DNA of 23,586 nucleotides from IMG/VR virus record IMGVR_UViG_2778261031_000008, one strand, 5' to 3'. The notes beneath the pieces are model-generated. The model searched no databases. It saw only the letters and a program-made list of their open reading frames with translations, and was not told the origin of the DNA. Numbering within the stretch: the stretch's first letter is position 1; each line of letters opens with the position of its first letter. The stretch comes from a virus (lineage: Duplodnaviria > Heunggongvirae > Uroviricota > Caudoviricetes). Shown piece by piece: positions 3,731-23,169 of the stretch. A program made the translations under genes and the position numbers.

Positions 3731-4188
3731 GCAGAGTAACCGCGATTATTTCCGCTCTGGTTATCTGCATTATCGTTTGCTTGTCATGGGCTGTTAATCA
3801 TTACCGCGATAACGCCATTACCTACAAAGCCCAGCGCGACAAAAATGCCAGAGAACTGAAGCTGGCGAACTCGACAATTACTGACATGCAGATGCGTCAG
3901 CGTGATGTTGCTGCGCTCGATGCAAAATACACGAAGGAGTTAGCTGATGCGAAAGCTGAAAATGATGTTCTGCGTGATGATGTTGCCGCTGGTCGTCGTC
4001 GGTTGCACATCAAAGCAGTCTGTCAGTCAGTGCGTGAAGCCACCACCGCCTCCGGCGTGGATAATGCAGCCTCCCCCCGACTGGCAGACACCGCTGAACG
4101 GGATTATTTCACCCTCAGAGAGAGGCTGATCACTATGCAAAAACAACTGGAAGGAACCCAGAAGTATATTAATGAGCAGTGCAGATAG
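3727..4188 (+). CDS. Rz: Spanin Rz (inner-membrane i-spanin)
   Basis: 153 aa, near-identical to lambda Rz; N-terminal transmembrane segment. Confidence 0.95.
3947..4129 (+). CDS. Rz1: Spanin Rz1 (outer-membrane lipoprotein o-spanin), fully embedded in Rz in the +1 frame
   Basis: 60 aa; lipobox LVVVGC, proline-rich (PPPPP); matches lambda Rz1. Confidence 0.9.
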
Positions 4189-4219
4189 CGCTGCCCATAT
4201 CGATGGGCAACTCATGCAA

Positions 4220-4513
4220 TTATTGTGAGCAATACACCCGCGCTTCCAGCGGAGTATAAATGCCTAAAGTAATAAAACCGAGCAATCCATTTACGAATGT
4301 TTGCTGGGTTTCTGTTTTAACCACATTTTCTGCGCCGCCACAAATTTTGGCTGCATCAACAGTTTTCTCCTGTCCAATTCCCGAAACGAAGAAATGATGG
4401 GTGATGGTTTCCTTTGGTGTTACTGCTGTCGGTTTGTTTCCAACAGTAAACGTCTGTTGAGCACATCCTGTAATAAGCATTGCCAGAGCGGCAGAAAACA
4501 ACATTTTTTTCAT
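4220..4513 (-). CDS. bor: Bor lipoprotein (lysogenic-conversion serum-resistance protein)
   Basis: Start taken at the internal MKKM (ATG 4513) with an AGGAT RBS; 97 aa near-identical to lambda Bor (lipobox LITGC); the ORF-track 113 aa version is an upstream extension. Confidence 0.9.
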   Translation of the reverse strand: MKKMLFSAALAMLITGCAQQTFTVGNKPTAVTPKETITHHFFVSGIGQEKTVDAAKICGGAENVVKTETQQTFVNGLLGFITLGIYTPLEARVYCSQ

Positions 4514-4696
4514 CTTATTATCCTGCATTGTTAAAAACGGCAGAATCCTATGTGACAACAATTAAACGATAGTTAAATGGATTGATGAAAATTAAAACTA
4601 TATAGGTGTACGGTCAGACTATTGGAGGTAGTCAGGATTTGAATGTCAGTCTGTTGTCGGCATTCTGGCAATGCAATTTGGATAAAGCGGGGATTA

Positions 4697-4816
4697 AAAA
4701 GATAGAGGCGAGCCGGTCAGGTAGAAATGAATCAGGCTCAAAGTGAAGCGGAAAAGGTCTGTGGTACAAGCTGATGCAGCCATAATTACAGCCTGATGAT
4801 TTGTGGAATGAAACAT
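4697..4816 (-). CDS. Candidate small ORF (39 aa), hypothetical
   Basis: ATG at 4816 preceded by a consensus AAGGAGG Shine-Dalgarno at optimal spacing; translation MFHSTNHQAVIMAASACTTDLFRFTLSLIHFYLTGSPLSF; no recognisable family; below the ORF-track cutoff. Confidence 0.25.
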
Positions 4817-4896
4817 GTTGAACCTCCTTAATTGATGTTATTCGAGTGATGAAGGCATTCTGTCCTTCTATAGTGTCCAGTAAATCAAACAGGAAA

Positions 4897-4918
4897 CTTG
4901 TCCAACGTGTTGGACAAG
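4897..4918. repeat. Perfect 22 bp palindrome CTTGTCCAAC-GT-GTTGGACAAG, candidate protein-binding site
   Basis: 10 bp arms are exact reverse complements with a 2 bp spacer; read directly from the sequence. Confidence 0.6.
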
Positions 4919-5038
4919 CCTCTCCATTAGTGAGTTGTATTGATCACAACTCTACAAAGAATTCATTACTGGGTAGATGAAAATAGTTTCACGATGAATG
5001 GAGGAGGCTATGTCGGTGGCTTCTTCATTGGAGTACAT

Positions 5039-5389
5039 ATGCCATCACGAATCCCAAAAGCCTGCCGTGTTCGTGGCTGCCGCCATACCACCACAGACCC
5101 GTCAGGCTATTGTGAAAGCCACAAAAGCGAAGGCTGGAAGCAATACAAACCAGGCCTGTCACGTCATCAGCGCGGTTACGGTTCGAAGTGGGATACCATC
5201 CGTGAACGTGTGCTGAAGCGTGACAAAGGACTGTGTCAGTTATGTCTGCGTGCCGGTGTGGTGCGTGAGGCGAAAACCGTTGACCACATTATCCCTAAGG
5301 CGCATGGCGGCACTGACGCTGACAGTAATCTGCAGAGCCTGTGCTGGCCATGTCATAAGGCGAAGACGGCCCGTGAACGGCTAAAGTGA
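5039..5389 (+). CDS. HNH endonuclease (terminase-associated, HK97-type packaging accessory)
   Basis: Cys pairs CRVRGC and CQLC, DHIIPKAHGG, NLQSLCWPCH HNH motif; start chosen at ATG 5039 with GGAG RBS 5 nt upstream (ORF-track start 4940 is a TTG; ATG 4994 is an alternative). Confidence 0.8.
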   Translation: MPSRIPKACRVRGCRHTTTDPSGYCESHKSEGWKQYKPGLSRHQRGYGSKWDTIRERVLKRDKGLCQLCLRAGVVREAKTVDHIIPKAHGGTDADSNLQSLCWPCHKAKTARERLK

Positions 5390-5415
5390 TAATAATTCTC
5401 AACTGCATGAGGGGA

Positions 5416-5475
5416 GGGGCGGGTCAAATCCCTGCAGCCTGACGTCTTCCGGACTGCCCGCCCCATCGTTTTTTT
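5416..5475 (+). terminator. GC-rich inverted repeat (GGGGCGGG ... CCCGCCCC) followed by a 7-T run; terminator-like or part of a packaging (cos) region
   Basis: 8 bp GC arms at 5416-5423 and 5457-5464 with a large loop, then TTTTTTT at 5469-5475; lies between the HNH and small terminase genes. Confidence 0.4.
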
Positions 5476-5514
5476 ATACCCGCGAAAAATGAAATTTAAC
5501 CTGGAGTGCCGCAT

Positions 5515-6009
5515 ATGGCTGGAACGGCGGGGCGTTCCGGGCGTCGCCCCAAGCCAACGGCGCGCAAGGCGCTGGCCGGAAACCCCGGCAAGCGAGCCCT
5601 GAATAAAGATGAACCTGTTTTTACGCCCATCAAAGGTGTTGAGCCACCGGAGTGGTTCGCTGAAGAAGATCTCCCTCTCGCCACGATCATGTGGCAACTG
5701 ACAACCAAAGAACTCTGCGGTCAGGGCCTGCTGTGCGTGACTGACCTGGCGGTACTTGAGCGGTGGTGTGTGGCCTATGAGTTCTGGCGACGTGCCGTGA
5801 AAAATATTGCCAGACAGGGTAACACCATCACCGGTGCAATGGGTGGCATGGTCAAAAATCCGGAGCTGACCGCCAAAAAAGAACAGGAGTCCGAGATGAG
5901 CAGCACGGGGGCAATGCTCGGACTCGACCCCAGCAGCCGCCAGCGTCTGATTGGCCTGGCGGGGAAGAAGAAAGCCACTAACCCGTTTCTGAAAATCATC
6001 GAATCATGA
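5515..6009 (+). CDS. Terminase small subunit (P27 family)
   Basis: N-terminus [30 protein letters not shown] typical of P27-family TerS; ATG 5515 with GGAG RBS (ORF-track start 5506 is a GTG); ATGA coupling to the large subunit. Confidence 0.85.
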
Positions 6010-7739
6010 GCCGGAAATCTTACCCCAACGTAAATGCTGCCAATCAGTATGCCCGTGATGTCGTGCGGGGAAAGATTGTGGCCTGCCAGTTTGTGATTCA
6101 GGCCTGCCAGCGCCATCTTGATGACCTGATGGCGGAAAAAAGTAAGTCGTTTCGTTACCGCTTCGACAAGGACCTGGCTGAACGGGCCGCCAAATTTATT
6201 CAGCTGTTGCCGCACACCAAGGGTGAGTGGGCATTTAAGAGGATGCCCATCACGCTGGAGCCGTGGCAGCTCTTTGTGATCTGCTGCGCGTTTGGCTGGG
6301 TCAATAAAGGCTCCCGGCTGCGCCGCTTCCGTGAGGTGTATACCGAAATCCCCCGTAAGAACGGCAAATCGGCAATCTCTGCCGGTGTCGCCCTGTATTG
6401 TTTTGCCTGTGATAACGAGTTTGGCGCGGAAGTGTATTCCGGTGCCACGACAGAGAAACAGGCGTGGGAAGTCTTTCGCCCGGCGCGACTGATGTGTAAA
6501 CGCACACCCATGCTGACGGAAGCGTTCGGGATTGAGGTTAACGCCTCAAACATGAACCGTCCGGAGGATGGCGCGCGGTTTGAACCGCTGATCGGTAACC
6601 CCGGTGATGGATCATCACCCCACTGTGCGGTGGTGGATGAATATCACGAGCACGCCACCGATGCGCTTTACACCACGATGCTTACCGGGATGGGGGCGCG
6701 ACGTCAGCCACTGATGTGGGCCATTACTACTGCCGGGTACAACATTGAGGGGCCGTGCTACGACAAACGGCGGGAAGTTATCGAGATGCTCAACGGTTCG
6801 GTACCCAACGATGAACTGTTCGGGATCATCTATACCGTTGATGAAGGCGATGACTGGACCGACCCGCAGGTGCTGGAAAAAGCTAACCCGAATATTGGCG
6901 TGTCGGTTTATCGCGAATTTTTGTTAAGTCAGCAGCAGCGTGCGAAAAATAACGCCCGTCTGGCAAACGTCTTTAAAACAAAACACCTCAATATCTGGGT
7001 GTCGGCACGTTCGGCGTATTTCAACCTGGTGAGCTGGCAGAGCTGCGAGGATAAATCACTGACCCTTGAGCAGTTCGAGGGGCAGCCGTGCATTCTGGCC
7101 TTTGACCTGGCGCGTAAGCTGGATATGAACAGCATGGCGCGACTTTATACCCGCGAGATTGACGGTAAAACGCATTACTACAGTGTGGCCCCGCGTTTCT
7201 GGGTACCGTATGACACGGTGTACAGCGTCGAGAAAAATGAAGATCGACGGACAGCCGAACGCTTTCAGAAATGGGTGGAAATGGGCGTTCTGACCGTTAC
7301 CGATGGTGCGGAGGTGGATTATCGCTACATCCTCGAGGAGGCCAAAGCGGCGAACAAAATCAGCCCGGTCAGTGAGTCACCCATCGACCCCTTCGGGGCG
7401 ACCGGGTTGTCACATGACCTTGCTGATGAAGACCTGAACCCCATCACTATCATTCAGAACTACACCAACATGTCCGACCCGATGAAAGAGCTGGAAGCGG
7501 CAATTGAATCGGGGCGCTTTCATCATGATGGCAATCCCATCATGACCTGGTGTATCGGCAACGTGGTCGGCAAAACCATTCCGGGTAACGATGATGTGGT
7601 GAAACCCGTCAAAGAGCAGGCGGAAAACAAAATCGATGGTGCAGTTGCGCTGATTATGGCGGTTGGCAGAGCCATGCTGTACGAGAAAGAAGATACGTTG
7701 TCTGACCACATTGAGTCCTATGGGATCCGCTCGCTTTAA
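6006..7739 (+). CDS. Terminase large subunit
   Basis: 577 aa; Walker A-like PRKNGKSA; immediately downstream of TerS and upstream of portal. Confidence 0.9.
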
Positions 7740-7750
7740 CTGAGGTAATT

Positions 7751-7933
7751 ATGATCATGCTGATTCTCGCGCCTCTGGTGGGCGTGCTGGGGGCGCTTTT
7801 GCTGGCGTATGGTGCCTGGCTGATTTATCCCCCGGCGGGGTTTGTTGTTGCCGGGGCGTTGTGCCTGTTCTGGTCGTGGCTGGTGGCGCGATATCTCGAC
7901 CGTACACAGATGTCTGTTGGTGGAGGTAAATAG
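7751..7933 (+). CDS. Small hydrophobic protein (60 aa, two predicted transmembrane helices), hypothetical
   Basis: ORF between terminase and portal; sequence strongly hydrophobic ([26 protein letters not shown]...). Confidence 0.45.
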
Positions 7934-17394: not shown

Positions 17395-18771
17395 ATGGAT
17401 TTATCCTCATTTCCCACCCGACCTTCATTACTTTCGTCGTCTTCAGGCTGGCGTGACAGACTTCAGGACGCGTCATTTCGCGGTGTGCCGTTTAAGGTTG
17501 AAGAAGAAAGTGCGGGAACCGGTCGCCGTGTGGAAACACATGAATACCCGAACCGCGACAAGCCCTATACCGAAGATCTGGGAAAAGTCACTTTCCGCCC
17601 GTCCATCACAGCTTATGTGGTGGGAGATGACTGCTTTGACCAGCGCGATCGCCTGATTGAAGCGCTGAATAAACCCGGTCCCGGCACGCTTGTCCACCCG
17701 ACATACGGTGAGCTGAAAGTCTGTGTTGACGGGGAAGTTCGGGTCAGCACATCGAAAAGTGAAGGGCGTATTGTCCGCTTTGACCTGAAGTTTGTCGAAG
17801 CAGGAGAACTCTCTTACCCCACATCAGGTGCGGCGACGGCGCAGACGCTGATGTCATCCTGTTCTGCACTGGATGACTGCATCAGTGACAGCTTCAGCGG
17901 TTTCAGTATCGATGGTGTGGCGGATTTCGTGCAGAACGACGTTATCGGTAATGCCAGCACAATGCTTGGGTATGTTTCTGATGCGATGAAAGTGGTGGAT
18001 TCTGCCGTATCGGATGCCGCCAGGCTGTTGCAGGGGGATATCTCGGTACTTCTGCCGCCGCCATCGTCAGGCAAAAATTTCGTTGAGCAGGTGCAGAAAA
18101 TGTGGCGTACCGGGAAACGCCTTTATGGTAACGCCAGCGACCTGGTCACCATGATCAAAACGCTTTCCGGTGTCAGCCTCGGCAGCGATCTGCAACCGCG
18201 CGGCGTCTGGAAAACGGACAGTAAAACCACCGCCACGGCGACGCAGCAGCGTAACGTGGTTGCCAGCACCCTTCGTACGACCGCAATCAGCGAAGCGGCG
18301 TATGCCGTCACCCGATTGCCTGCGCCAACAACTTCCGCGGTGATGCAGAATTCCGCAGTGGGGCAGGCAACAACACCCGCGCAGAGCACTGGCTGGCCTT
18401 CCGTCACGCATCCGGCACTGAACAATGCACCGGCGGTGAAAAACACGGTTGACCTGCCGACGTGGGAAGAACTGACTGACATCCGCGACACACTGAATAC
18501 GGCAATTGATAAGGAGTTGTCCCGTACAACCAGTGATGCGCTGTTTCTGGCGCTGCGCCGGGTGAAAGCAGATCTGAATGCGGATATCAACACGCGCCTT
18601 GAACAGTCTGCACGGATCATTCAGCGCACACCGGATGAGGTTTTACCCGCGCTGGTGCTGGCGGCGACCTGGTTTGATAACGCGGCGCGTGACGCGGACA
18701 TTATCCGGCGTAATGCCATTACGCATCCCGGCTTTGTGCCGGTGATCCCTCTGAAGGTGCCAGTGCAATGA
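17395..18771 (+). CDS. DNA circulation protein (Mu gpN-like)
   Basis: 458 aa; N-terminal region (GVPFKVEEESAGTGRRVETHEYPNRDKPYTEDLG) typical of the Mu N family. Confidence 0.8.
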   Translation: MDLSSFPTRPSLLSSSSGWRDRLQDASFRGVPFKVEEESAGTGRRVETHEYPNRDKPYTEDLGKVTFRPSITAYVVGDDCFDQRDRLIEALNKPGPGTLVHPTYGELKVCVDGEVRVSTSKSEGRIVRFDLKFVEAGELSYPTSGAATAQTLMSSCSALDDCISDSFSGFSIDGVADFVQNDVIGNASTMLGYVSDAMKVVDSAVSDAARLLQGDISVLLPPPSSGKNFVEQVQKMWRTGKRLYGNASDLVTMIKTLSGVSLGSDLQPRGVWKTDSKTTATATQQRNVVASTLRTTAISEAAYAVTRLPAPTTSAVMQNSAVGQATTPAQSTGWPSVTHPALNNAPAVKNTVDLPTWEELTDIRDTLNTAIDKELSRTTSDALFLALRRVKADLNADINTRLEQSARIIQRTPDEVLPALVLAATWFDNAARDADIIRRNAITHPGFVPVIPLKVPVQ

Positions 18772-19847
18772 ACGACAATGTCACGCTACGGGTAAATGGC
18801 CGGGAGTGGAATGGCTGGACATCGGTGCGCATCGGTGCCGGTATTGAACGGCTGGCGCGGGATTTCAGTGTGGAGATCACTCGCCAGTGGCCGGGAGATG
18901 AGGGTATCACCACGCTTCAGCCGCGCATTAAAAACGGTTCAAAAGTGGAAGTGCTGATTGGTGATGAGCTGGTGATCACCGGCTGGGTGGAGGCGACTCC
19001 CGTTCGTTACGATGCCCGTTCGGTCAGCACCGGTATTGCCGGACGCAGTCTGACCGCTGACCTGATTGACTGTGCAGCCGAACCGACACAGTTTAACGGA
19101 CGATCGCTGGTACAGATTGCGCAGGCGCTTGCTGCGCCTTTCGGCATTGAGGTGGTGAACAGCGGTGCGCCGTCGGGTGTTATTCCTGATGTTCAGCCTG
19201 ATCACGGTGAAACGGTGATTGAGGTAATCAACAAAATACTCGGTCAGCAGCAGGCACTGGCTTACGACGACCCGCACGGCAGGCTGGTGATTGGCGGTAT
19301 TGGCTCAACGCGGGCACATACTGCGCTGGTACTCGGGGAAAACATCCTTTCCTGCGATACGGAGAAGAGTATCCGGGAGCGATTTTCTGTTTACCAGGTG
19401 GCGGGGCAGCGTGCCGGAAACGACGATGATTTCGGTGAGGCCACCACCACCGCGCTGCGGGCCCGCGCAGAGGACGCATTTATTGCCCGTTACCGTCCGA
19501 TGTATATCAGGCAGACAGGGCAGGCTACGGGGGCAGGCTGTATTGCGCGTGCTGACTTTGAAGCCCGGCAACGGGCGGCGCGGACGGATGAAACCACCTA
19601 TGTGGTGCAGGGCTGGCGACAGGGTAACGGTACGCTGTGGCAGCCCAACCAGCGGGTGATTGTCTTTGATCCGGTCTGTGGTTTCGACAATACCGAACTG
19701 CTTGTTTCGGAAGTCACGTTTACTCAGGACCAGAACGGCACCCTGACGGAAATCCGTGTCGGCCCACCTGATGCTTATCTGCCTGAACCCGAAGCCCCCG
19801 GCGCGCGGAAAAAGAAAAAAGCCAGAGTACAGGAGGACCCGTTCTGA
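18768..19847 (+). CDS. Baseplate hub / tail protein (Mu gpP-like)
   Basis: 359 aa; synteny after the N-like gene. Confidence 0.75.
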   Translation: MNDNVTLRVNGREWNGWTSVRIGAGIERLARDFSVEITRQWPGDEGITTLQPRIKNGSKVEVLIGDELVITGWVEATPVRYDARSVSTGIAGRSLTADLIDCAAEPTQFNGRSLVQIAQALAAPFGIEVVNSGAPSGVIPDVQPDHGETVIEVINKILGQQQALAYDDPHGRLVIGGIGSTRAHTALVLGENILSCDTEKSIRERFSVYQVAGQRAGNDDDFGEATTTALRARAEDAFIARYRPMYIRQTGQATGAGCIARADFEARQRAARTDETTYVVQGWRQGNGTLWQPNQRVIVFDPVCGFDNTELLVSEVTFTQDQNGTLTEIRVGPPDAYLPEPEAPGARKKKKARVQEDPF

Positions 19848-20395
19848 TGAGGACGATTGAAGCCATGCAGCGACAACTCCTCGGCCTGATTGGGCGGGCA
19901 GTGGTGAAAAGCATCAGTGCCGCCACGAAATGTCAGACCGTGGATGTGTCCCTGATTGCCGGTGAACCCAAAGCCGGGGTTGAACATCTTGAACCCTACG
20001 GTTTTACCGCAAGGGCAAACAGCGGTGCGGAAGCGGTGGTGTTGTTTCCGGATGGAGACCGTTCTCATGCGGTGGTTGTTACGGTGTCGGACCGGCGCTA
20101 CCGCCTGAAAGGGCTGCAGACGGGTGAGGTGGCTGTCTATGACGATCAGGGGCAGTCCGTGACGCTGACCCGGGAGGGGATCGTGGTGGACGGTGCAGGT
20201 AAAACGATCACGTTTCGCAATTCACCTAAAGCACGTTTTGAAATGGACCTGGAAGTGACAGGACAGGTGAAAGACCTGTGCGACTCCAGCGGCACCACCA
20301 TGTCAGCGATGCGGCTTGCCTATAACGGGCATCGTCACAGAGAGAACGGTCAGGGTAGTAACACCGACAAACCTGATAAAGCGATGGAGGCATGA
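19847..20395 (+). CDS. Baseplate spike protein (gpV / Mu gp45-like)
   Basis: 182 aa; synteny and size. Confidence 0.7.
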   Translation: MRTIEAMQRQLLGLIGRAVVKSISAATKCQTVDVSLIAGEPKAGVEHLEPYGFTARANSGAEAVVLFPDGDRSHAVVVTVSDRRYRLKGLQTGEVAVYDDQGQSVTLTREGIVVDGAGKTITFRNSPKARFEMDLEVTGQVKDLCDSSGTTMSAMRLAYNGHRHRENGQGSNTDKPDKAMEA

Positions 20396-20820
20396 TGGAA
20401 CTGTGGCTGACGGTGAACGGTAAACGCACCTGCGCCAGCGCACCGCTGGATCCGCTGACCCGCGCCGTGGTGATTTCCCTGTTTACCTGGCGGCGGGCGG
20501 AGCCTGATGACAACGCCGACGTCCCGATGGGATGGTGGGGGGATACCTGGCCTGCGGTACAGAATGACCGTTACGGCTCCCGACTGTGGCTGCTTCAGCG
20601 CAGCAAACTGACCAATCAGCTGGTGCAGACGGTAAGGGGGTATATCCGCGAATGCCTGCAATGGATGATTGATGATGGCGTGGTGTCCCGTATTGATCTG
20701 GATATCCGCCGCACCGGGATTAATGAGCTGGGTAACAGTATCACTCTCTGGCGTCGTGACGGACCGGTAATGATTTCTTTTGATGATCTGTGGAGTGCGA
20801 TAACGCATGGCGGACAGTGA
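20392..20820 (+). CDS. Baseplate protein (Mu gp46 / gpW-like)
   Basis: 142 aa; ATGA-type coupling with neighbours. Confidence 0.7.
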   Translation: MMELWLTVNGKRTCASAPLDPLTRAVVISLFTWRRAEPDDNADVPMGWWGDTWPAVQNDRYGSRLWLLQRSKLTNQLVQTVRGYIRECLQWMIDDGVVSRIDLDIRRTGINELGNSITLWRRDGPVMISFDDLWSAITHGGQ

Positions 20821-21865
20821 ATTTCAGCGCCCGACGCTGGCAGAAAATATCAGTATGCTCCGTAACGATTTATTCGCCAGGCTGGACGTCAGCGACACGC
20901 TCCGGCGCATGGATGAAGACGTGCGGGCAAAGGTGTATGCGGCGGCGCTGCATACGGTTTACGGGTACATCGATTATCTGGCAATGAATATGCTGCCTGA
21001 CCTGTGCGATGAGTCCTGGCTGGCGCGACATGCTGCGATGAAACGGTGTCCGCGCAAGGGGGCCACGGCTGCCAGCGGGTATATGTGCTGGGAAGGTGTC
21101 AGCGATGGCCTGAAGGTGACCGCCGGGAGTGTTATTCAGCGCGATGACCTGGTTCAGTACACGGCAACTGCCGATGCAACCAGCTCCGGTGGTGTCCTGC
21201 GCGTGCCGATCGCCTGCTCAAGTGCAGGTGCGGTCGGTAACGCTGACGACGGTACGGCATTAATCCTGGTCACGCCGGTGAATGGTCTGCCGTCTTCCGG
21301 TGTGGCTGACACCCTTACAGGCGGATTTGATACTGAAGAGCTGGAAACGTGGCGCGCCCGCGTCATTGAGCGGTATTACTGGACGCCGCAGGGCGGGGCT
21401 GACGGGGACTATGTCGTCTGGGCTAAAGAAGTGCCCGGCATTACCCGCGCATGGACATACCGTCACTGGATGGGAACGGGGACTGTCGGTGTGATGATTG
21501 CCGGCAGTGACCTGATTAATCCCATTCCGGAAGAATCAACGGAAACGGCGGCAAGACAACACATTGAGCCACTGGCCCCGGTGGCAGGCTCTGATTTGTA
21601 TGTGTTCAGGCCGGTGGCGCATACGGTGGATTTTCATATCCGCGTGACGCCGGACACACCGGAAATACGAGCCGCCATCACTGCTGAGTTGCGTTCGTTC
21701 CTGCTGCGTGATGGTTATCCGCAGGGAGAACTGAAGGTGTCGCGTATCAGTGAAGCGATTTCCGGTGCGAACGGGGAATACAGCCATCAATTGCTTGCAC
21801 CGGCGGACAATATCTCCATTGCAAAAAATGAACTGGCGGTTCTGGGGACGATTTCATGGACGTGA
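20807..21865 (+). CDS. Baseplate J-like protein (Mu gp47-like)
   Basis: 352 aa; synteny and size typical of baseplate wedge J proteins. Confidence 0.8.
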
Positions 21866-22440
21866 CAAACGATGATTACATCTGTCTGTTGTCGGCACTG
21901 CTGCCGCCCGGTCCGGCGTGGTCAGCCAGCGATCCGGCGATTGCCGGTGCGGCACCGTCATTAACTCGTGTTCATCAGCGTGCGGATGCCCTGATGCGGG
22001 AGCTGGATCCGCGCACCACCACCGAACTGATAAATCGCTGGGAGCGTCTGTGCGGCCTGCCGGATGAATGTATTCCCGCAGGGACACAGACCCTTCGCCA
22101 GCGTCAGCAACGACTGGATGCGAAGGTTAACCTGGCGGGCGGCATCAATGAGGATTTTTACCTTGCACAGCTTGCTGCCCTGGGCAGACCAGACGCTACC
22201 ATCACGCGATACGACAAAAGCACGTTCACCTGCTCATCGGCCTGTACTGACGCGGTGAATGCGCCGGAATGGCGGTATTACTGGCAGGTCAACATGCCAG
22301 CCGCCACCAACACCACCTGGATGACATGTGGCGATCCCTGTGATTCCGCACTGCGTATCTGGGGTGACACCGTTGTCGAGTGTGTGCTTAACAAACTCTG
22401 CCCGTCGCATACCTACGTAATTTTTAAATATCCGGAGTAA
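21856..22440 (+). CDS. Tail protein (Mu gp48 / gpI-like, DUF2313-type)
   Basis: 194 aa; immediately upstream of the tail fibre gene. Confidence 0.7.
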
Positions 22441-22443
22441 TCC

Positions 22444-23169
22444 ATGCATCGTATAGACACGAAAACCGCGCAGAAGGATAAGTTCGGCGCGGGTAAGAAC
22501 GGTTTTACCCGTGGTAACCCCCAGACTGGCACTCCTGCCACCGATCTGGATGATGACTACTTTGACATGTTGCAGGAAGAACTCTGCAGCGTGGTGGAGG
22601 CATCCGGTGCCAGCCTGGAGAAAGGGCGGCATGACCAGCTGCTTACCGCACTTCGTGCGCTGCTGTTAAGCCGCAAGAATCCGTTTGGCGATATCAAATC
22701 GGATGGTACTGTGCAAACGGCTCTCGGAAATCTTGGTTTGGGAACAGCAGCAACCAAAAATGTTGGAACCGGATCTGGTCAAATCCCTGACATGTCCAGC
22801 TTTGGTATGTCGCGAAACGGACAAACTATCTGGGATATTCTCCCAAATGGTATGATTCGACAGGCTGGCATTGTGACACTGACACCAGTTGGTAACTTCA
22901 ACGCGCAGGTGCTTGGTGGGGTGACGTACTACACCCATTACTACAGGGTTAATTTCCCCAGAGAATTCCCAAACGCACAATTAGCAACGCTGGCAACACT
23001 AGCGAGTTACGGCTTTTCGGGCCAGTCATCAATGGCTGGAAGATCACTGGCAACGGATCGCGATACTGATTCTGGCACTGACGTATCAAGAACGCGATTC
23101 ACTGTGGCGTATACGACACCCTATATTGGCGAAATACCGACTTTGCACTTTGAAGCAATAGGATACTAA
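22444..23169 (+). CDS. Tail fibre protein with conserved N-terminal anchor and AT-rich, probably exchangeable C-terminal receptor-binding part
   Basis: 241 aa; N-terminus [40 protein letters not shown] typical of phage tail fibres; GGAG RBS; composition becomes AT-richer from about 22700 onward. Confidence 0.8.
22722..22746. other. Candidate invertase crossover site (gix/hix/pix-like core AAATC-TT-GGTTT) at the constant/variable junction of the tail fibre
   Basis: CTCTCGGAAATCTTGGTTTGGGAACA resembles Gin/Hin-family sites (AAACC-NN-GGTTT core) as I recall them, with mismatches; coincides with the compositional break. Confidence 0.3.

Follow-up and report, generated by a model that had tools for sequence, protein, structure and literature searches.

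Introduction

The closest described counterparts of the element analysed here are found in the Shigella flexneri serotype-converting phages SfI, SfII, SfIV and SfV, which have been reported to share one identical cos site (PMC3851460). In SfI, the ends of the virion DNA were sequenced directly by run-off, revealing a 10-nt gap with respect to the prophage, 5'-TGCCCGCCCC-3', and it was concluded that this phage packages by a cos mechanism like SfV (PMC3636060). For the phage group as a whole, the cos of SfI was mapped in 2013, that of phiP27 is annotated, and that of SfV was postulated.

A second point of reference is HK97, whose virion DNA carries 10-nt 3' overhangs (PMC11331095; PMC9410871). 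The small terminase subunit (TerS) of this phage recognises a minimal 15-bp site located at +15 to +29 from the cleavage position, where it reads a single C:G pair (position 21) together with the shape of the adjacent A-tract (PMC11331095). Binding of TerS stalls the motor and brings the cut site into the nuclease of the large subunit (TerL), while the HNH protein gp74 stimulates cleavage (PMC11331095; PMC9410871). The cos of lambda (cosQ-cosN-cosB) consists of an upstream element and a downstream terminase-docking region placed around a staggered nick beside the terminase genes (PMC6739421).

We analysed a 23,586-nt stretch of DNA from a tailed phage (IMG/VR record IMGVR_UViG_2778261031_000008; hereafter the window), in which the original prediction had singled out a GC-rich inverted repeat with a T-tract as a transcription terminator, a cos-associated packaging site, or both. 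The element at 5390-5514 is very probably the cos of an SfV/phiP27-type prophage, belonging to the HK97-type, HNH-dependent family, with cut positions that we transfer by homology. The site itself is already known, being a further copy of the published cos of the SfV/SfI/phiP27 group.

Genomic context of the spacer

The interval 5390-5514 is exactly the 125-nt intergenic spacer between an HNH gene and a small terminase gene, as had been predicted. On its left lies the HNH endonuclease gene (5039-5389, plus strand; Pfam HNH PF01844, E 2.3e-16), whose TGA stop codon occupies 5387-5389 and whose product, a packaging accessory nuclease, is the counterpart of HK97 gp74 (36% identity, E 5e-11). An HNH gene is likewise found directly upstream of cos in SfV, SfI, phiP27, and HK97. 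On the right is terS (5515-6009, plus strand; Terminase_4, Pfam PF05119, E 2.3e-21), which starts with an ATG at 5515 preceded by a GGAG ribosome-binding site at 5503-5506, and whose homologues bear the name P27-family TerS. It is followed by the gene for TerL, the cos-cutting enzyme (6006-7739, plus strand; Pfam TerL_ATPase and TerL_nuclease), with 26% identity to HK97 gp2 over 522 alignment columns (E 2e-29).

Further upstream are genes for a holin, Rz, and Bor, and downstream of the HNH/TerS/TerL genes come those for a portal, an S78 prohead protease, and a capsid of the HK97 fold, so that the HK97-type packaging context proposed in the original prediction is recovered. The surrounding genes form a lambdoid late region, with the spacer placed at the junction of the lysis and head modules, and the packaging genes in the window are intact. 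The Shigella flexneri serotype-converting myoviruses SfIV, SfII, SfI, and SfV, as well as related E. coli phages, match the window with 97-98% identity over 5448-22751. Of 5426 complete E. coli genomes, 1129 (about one fifth) contain the 221 bases around the spacer. The prophage of the window is probably still active.

Some local variation was also observed in this region. Position 5502, just before the terS ribosome-binding site, is a T in the window (CCTGGAG), whereas most relatives have an A (CCAGGAG); E. coli E89, whose cos core is 100% identical to that of the window, also has a T. In the same strain (NZ_CP121157.1:1538354-1538638), the segment corresponding to window 5385-5408 carries AGTGATAATAATTCTCAACTGCCT as a 24-bp tandem duplication that directly follows the HNH stop codon; the duplication falls in the variable part of the spacer and is also present in other strains such as CUPF06. 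Finally, the non-coding stretch of ~480 bp between bor and the HNH gene harbours on the minus strand, at 4893-4922, a 13-bp hairpin (GAGGCTTGTCCAAC/GTTGGACAAGTTTC) followed by a T-rich tail, which is the strongest terminator-like site in 4000-7000.

Probable position of the cut

The 10-mer TGCCCGCCCC mapped on SfI virion DNA occurs only once in the window, at 5455-5464, where it comprises the right arm of the inverted repeat (5457-5464) plus two bases. Together with the preceding GGAC it makes up the segment 5451-5464 (plus strand), whose assignment as the cohesive end is drawn from the SfI virion-end gap and from the ends of several phage records. The cos-associated reading of the original prediction is supported here, as the right arm is the very cohesive end determined in SfI, with phiP27, HK97, and Edwardsiella phage EPP-1 in register. 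In particular, the SfI record, linearised by its authors as 'ending with the cos site', ends at the base equivalent to window 5464 and begins at 5465, and the 10-nt misc_feature 'cos-site' of phiP27, CGCCCGCCCC, aligns base for base with 5455-5464. The HK97 record ends with GGGGGGGGGATCAAATC followed by 34 nt (closing with TGACCGCCGCCAAA), and the same spacing is found in the window, where TCAAATC (5424-5430) plus 34 nt leads to 5464. The EPP-1 record likewise ends with GTAAATC followed by 34 nt (closing with GTACTGCCCGCCTC) and starts with CCCCAATTTTTATGACCGCGAAAAATGAAATTT, the homologue of 5465 onward. The EPP-1 assembly was 'corrected using PhageTerm', in a paper that gives neither termini nor packaging mode (PMC11043334); the ends of this record presumably represent measured termini.

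From these correspondences, the nicks would fall at 5464/5465 on the top strand and at 5454/5455 on the bottom strand, leaving 10-nt 3' overhangs. The 3' polarity is suggested by the SfI experiment, because run-off sequencing from both ends leaves a gap only if the 5' ends are recessed, and by the likeness to HK97. The records of relatives start at different places, namely at the equivalents of window 5390 in SfII, 5448 (7 nt before the 10-mer) in SfV and SfIV, 5465 (the true +1) in SfI, and 5500 in ST64B. Since linearisation points differ in this way, record starts alone are misleading as to the cut site. A literature search with the literal sequences TGCCCGCCCC and GGTCAAATC/GATCAAATC returned unrelated papers only.

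We can propose how the site would operate. During late growth, concatemeric DNA would be cut with a 10-bp stagger, after 5464 on the top strand and after 5454 on the bottom strand, and the ends of virion DNA would be complementary 3' overhangs, with TGCCCGCCCC on the right end. The right arm of the inverted repeat would thus be the cohesive end, and the left arm would be part of a separate box at 5411-5430 that is shared with HK97.

Comparison with described cos sites

The cos regions of SfI, SfV, SfII, and SfIV are essentially the same DNA as that of the window, with 98-99% identity across the spacer, the cohesive end TGCCCGCCCC, the same flanking HNH and P27-family TerS genes, and a shared myovirus structural module. 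They differ from it by point changes in the variable part of the spacer (for instance CTGCAG in the window versus CTGTGA in SfV) and at 5502, and in the kind of evidence, the window site being known from prophage sequence and that of SfI from virion DNA.

In the Stx2e phage phiP27 (AJ298298, misc_feature 21806-21815), after which the TerS family of the window is named, the elements follow in the same register: a G-box with TCAAATC, 34 nt, CGCCCGCCCC, an A/T run, and ACCCGCGAAA. However, identity drops to ~78%, with 148 of 221 nt covered, and the two spacers differ in sequence; the 10-mer begins with C in phiP27 versus T in the window, and the two sequences diverge after +20.

The likeness to HK97 lies in arrangement. 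Both have the HNH gene upstream and terS downstream, a G-run and ATCAAATC box from which exactly 34 nt lead to the end of the cohesive end, a GAC(C/T)GCC motif that enters the overhang, a T-rich segment after the cut (GTTTGAATTT at +1 to +10 in HK97), and a GC core with an A-tract around +15 to +29. The two sites also differ: the HK97 cohesive end is CGCCGCCAAA and there is no 8-bp inverted repeat; the distance from the HNH gene to the end is 319 nt in HK97 versus 75 nt in the window; the TerS site is CTAACCCGATTTTTT in HK97 versus a putative CCCGCGAAAAATGAA in the window; and HK97 TerS has no match to Pfam Terminase_4 and is unrelated in sequence to the TerS of the window. Of the defining features of an HK97-type, HNH-dependent cos, the window has at sequence level the gene order, the cohesive-end sequence of the subgroup, the register of related genome termini, and the homology of TerL and HNH to gp2 and gp74, together with a putative TerS docking site.

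Lambda follows the same tripartite logic as the window. Its overhangs are 5' and 12 nt long, its terminase is Nu1/gpA, it has no HNH protein, and its cosN is flanked by IHF and R sites; in contrast, the window has an HNH protein, a P27-family TerS, and a probable 10-nt 3' overhang, and a search of 5380-5530 with the IHF consensus WATCAANNNNTTR gave no site within one mismatch. A lambda-type cos was also considered for the window and rejected, as its TerS belongs to Terminase_4 and not to Nu1, an HNH gene is present, 5380-5530 has no IHF consensus within one mismatch, and the run-off gap of its relatives fits 3' overhangs.

Conserved architecture

To map variation among close relatives we used 46 distinct sequences, taken from loci that were retrieved with the TerS alignment and are 99-100% identical. 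Variable sites are strikingly uneven: 16 of 21 in 5390-5410, 3 of 20 in 5411-5430, 14 of 20 in 5431-5450, 1 of 14 in 5451-5464, and 1 of 37 in 5465-5501. Two conserved blocks flank a variable spacer of fixed length, and the conservation of these blocks is far beyond chance.

The left cos box, delimited by conservation at 5411-5434 (plus strand), consists of the G-run GGGGAGGGGCGGG, followed by TCAAATC (5424-5430) and CCTG, and contains the left arm of the repeat (5416-5423). It is invariant or nearly so in E. coli, Shigella, Salmonella, Klebsiella, and phiP27, and variants of it are recognisable in Gilliamella, Xenorhabdus, Edwardsiella EPP-1, and metagenome contigs. It is followed by the variable spacer (5435-5450), defined by site variation, whose left edge overlaps the PstI site (5432-5437) and which includes an AatII site (5441-5446); the HK97, Klebsiella, and phiP27 lineages have unrelated sequences in its place, but of the same length. 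After the GGAC and the cohesive end comes the T7 run (5469-5475, plus strand), at +5 to +11 from the top-strand nick, in an A/T-rich tract between the nick and the putative TerS site. The position of the T7 run is conserved, but it reads AATTTTT in ST64B, Adana, phiP27, and EPP-1. The putative TerS recognition site, CCCGCGAAAAATGAA (5479-5493, plus strand; +15 to +29), is made of a GC core followed by an A-tract; it belongs to a wider conserved block (5476-5499) and is the most conserved part of the whole spacer.

To follow these parts over larger distances, IMG/VR was scanned for GGNTCAAATC-N21-GACYGCC, which gave 120 loci, of which ~112 are true cos regions, and an unbiased sample was added from the regions upstream of TerS homologues with 65-76% identity. 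The left half of the site, made of a G-run, (T/A)NAAAT(C/A/T), the variable spacer of fixed length, GAC(C/T)GCC, and a C-rich end, is common to the SfV, HK97, Klebsiella, and phiP27 types, which have unrelated right halves and small terminases. The right half of the window type, ATCG-T7-ATACCCGCGAAAAATGAAATTT, travels with the TerS family of the window, and its core CGCGAAAAAT(G/C)AA persists in Gilliamella, Xenorhabdus, and metagenome contigs.

Two IMG/VR loci (L054 and L067) are almost the same in the left half of cos but differ in the right half and in the TerS gene, the switch occurring within a few bases of the cut (window 5460-5470). Such joining of identical left halves to different right halves indicates that cos is a recombination or mosaic joint between HNH-side and terminase-side modules. 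In a Providencia locus (L140; GCA_051695105.1, positions 261-800), a TerS homologue 74% identical to that of the window is preceded by a KilA-N gene in place of the HNH gene, and no cos motif is present directly upstream of this TerS homologue; the cos of that prophage must therefore be elsewhere.

Inverted repeat, terminator and other readings

The sequence elements listed in the original prediction are all present. The arms GGGGCGGG (5416-5423) and CCCGCCCC (5457-5464) are exact 8-nt complements with 33 nt between them, CTGCAG lies at 5432-5437, and the T7 run (5469-5475) begins four bases past the right arm. However, the prediction took the hairpin as the unit, and this part does not hold. 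When the 125-nt spacer was shuffled 1000 times with dinucleotides preserved, 89 of the shuffles (~9%) contained an exact inverted repeat of at least 8 nt, and the repeat thus exceeds chance only weakly. Only the SfV-like clade and phiP27 have all eight pairs; other lineages of the same architecture have 2-7 Watson-Crick pairs in register, and HK97 has 3. The left arm mostly stays GGGGCGGG, and the right arm varies (CCCGCCTC, CCCGCCAA, CCCCCTTA, CCGCCTAA). Pairing was examined in 119 loci and in an in-register alignment of 37 sequences; in the latter, 70.3% of cells are paired, whereas column shuffles give 67.5% and sliding the partner gives 56-65%. Most of the outer pairs are broken. The inverted repeat appears to be mostly a by-product of a G-rich box lying on the same strand as a C-rich cohesive end. 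The PstI palindrome was likewise considered as a functional dyad and rejected: it falls in the variable spacer, where SfV has CTGTGA and SfII CTGCGG, and its presence is incidental. The functional unit is most likely not the hairpin but the succession of the G-run and TCAAATC box, the variable spacer, GGAC with the cut site, the T-run, and the CCCGCGAAAAATGAA block.

Might the repeat nevertheless be functional in itself, as a DNA cruciform, a symmetric protein-binding site, or an RNA hairpin controlling terS translation? Its perfection in the SfV and phiP27 lineages would fit this idea, as would one aligned pair that flips from C-G to G-C between clades (column 13-53: GC in 15, CG in 13), and the Xenorhabdus sequences, where six Watson-Crick pairs and one G-T pair are kept with different bases. 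The observed covariation score is moreover reached by none of 500 shuffles, a control that is inflated by relatedness among the sequences; yet a control alignment slid by +3 gives an equally high value (0.184 vs 0.171). The frequency of such repeats in shuffled spacers, the many lineages in which the left arm is unchanged while the right arm changes, and the mere three complementary positions of HK97, which shares the architecture, all argue against it. In addition, the centre of the dyad (~5440) is off the nick sites, which are centred near 5459-5460, and the hairpin stops 50 nt short of the terS ATG, leaving the ribosome-binding site untouched. We consider a role for the repeat itself very unlikely.

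The transcription terminator offered as an alternative in the original prediction fares slightly better, but remains improbable. According to it, the stem 5416-5423/5457-5464 and the T7 run would act as a Rho-independent terminator of HNH or late-lysis transcription, instead of or besides cos. There is indeed a resemblance to intrinsic terminators, in that a U7 tract comes after an exact 8-bp stem made only of G/C pairs. Additional pairing is possible inside the 33-nt 'loop', an A-A mismatch allows the stem to reach within one base of the U-run, and T-runs follow the cut site in several lineages. A terminator in the cos spacer would also be harmless to the Q-antiterminated late transcript of lambdoid phages. 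However, intrinsic terminators have a short loop and a U-tract that follows immediately (0-2 nt), whereas here the loop is 33 nt and the four bases AUCG separate stem and U-run, and a consensus scan of 4000-7000 found no plus-strand terminator. Folding stability is ordinary, with -25.4 kcal/mol for the RNA 5408-5478 (z = -0.67; 51 of 200 shuffles as stable) and z = +0.74 against shuffles for 5385-5520, and Rfam covariance models gave no match at E<=1 on either strand of 5200-5700. The pairing is not conserved, and nor are the proximal U's: HK97, Klebsiella, and other lineages outside SfV and phiP27 have lost the repeat, and the AATTTTT of relatives replaces stem-proximal T's by A's, which weakens a terminator while keeping the A/T tract. 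Finally, the downstream head genes depend on read-through of the spacer. The scan of 4000-7000 found no sigma-70-like promoter in the spacer either. The site may at most be a weak terminator that is ignored by the Q-modified polymerase.

Least credible of all are headful packaging from a pac site and a defective prophage in which the element would be an inert remnant. The window by itself does not prove that the prophage can be induced, but SfI, and with it SfV, SfII, and SfIV (PMC3851460), package by cos with defined ends, and the TerL of the window belongs to the HK97 cos type. In addition, the window has intact packaging genes, and the site is under strong constraint in many copies and occurs in 1129 E. 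coli genomes. A cos of the SfV/phiP27 type remains by far the best reading of the spacer.

Putative roles of the two blocks

By analogy with HK97, whose left end reads GTTTGAATTTAACGCTAACCCGATTTTTTTAG, the right block of the window would be where TerS docks, and the T-run would belong to the A/T-rich stretch that separates this block from the nick. The T-run at +5 to +11 and CCCGCGAAAAATGAA at +15 to +29 most likely form this docking site together, as in HK97. Comparison of the window TerS with HK97 gp1 gave no sequence similarity, and the Foldseek comparison was not significant.

The left box is located exactly 34 bp before the top-strand nick in HK97, SfV, phiP27, and in Klebsiella, Xenorhabdus, Gilliamella, and Edwardsiella phages, despite their differing small terminases and downstream halves; in HK97 (NC_002167), the G-run and (A/G)TCAAATC box corresponding to window 5411-5430 lies at 39682-39698. 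This independence from the type of TerS points to TerL or HNH as the partner of the box, whose position resembles that of cosQ in lambda. We tentatively suggest that 5411-5430 might be a distinct, TerS-independent sub-site of cos, either a cosQ-like termination signal or a recognition site for HNH/TerL, a possibility that we regard as real but the less probable outcome. The HK97 packaging papers that we examined define only the downstream TerS site and give no description of the left box. A left box at a fixed distance of 34 bp that is shared with HK97 is only a mildly new point, and we do not claim it as new.

Occurrence of the site in satellite-like contigs

Some small IMG/VR contigs without HNH or P27 TerS genes alongside keep only the part of the spacer equivalent to 5411-5494, which delimits the cis-acting unit. 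Four of these (L094, L074, L120, and L048) carry the SfV-type cos core, G-box..TCAAATC..CCCGCCCC|ATCGATTTTTTATACCCGCGAAAAATGAAAA. In L094, a contig of 8354 bp in its entirety with cos at 2047-2084 on the minus strand, we found genes for a D5-type primase-helicase, a ClpP-protease/capsid fusion, a lambda tail-I-like protein, a DUF1441 protein, and a DNA methylase. A further contig (L072, 2128-2165) has a phiP27-type cos, likewise without HNH or P27 TerS alongside. The four contigs resemble phage satellites, with a packaging specificity borrowed from SfV-like helpers, and L072 looks like the same with the phiP27-type cos.

Significance

As a discovery the element carries little weight, the site being known and present in about one fifth of complete E. 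coli genomes. Its recognition has practical consequences, in that the correct linear start of such prophage genomes is window 5465, whereas the GenBank records of SfV, SfIV, SfII, and ST64B begin elsewhere. It also marks the cis element for mobilisation of cos-plasmids or satellites by SfV-like phages, and the arrangement in two blocks, which HK97 shares, could serve as a guide for mutagenesis in the in vitro packaging system of that phage.
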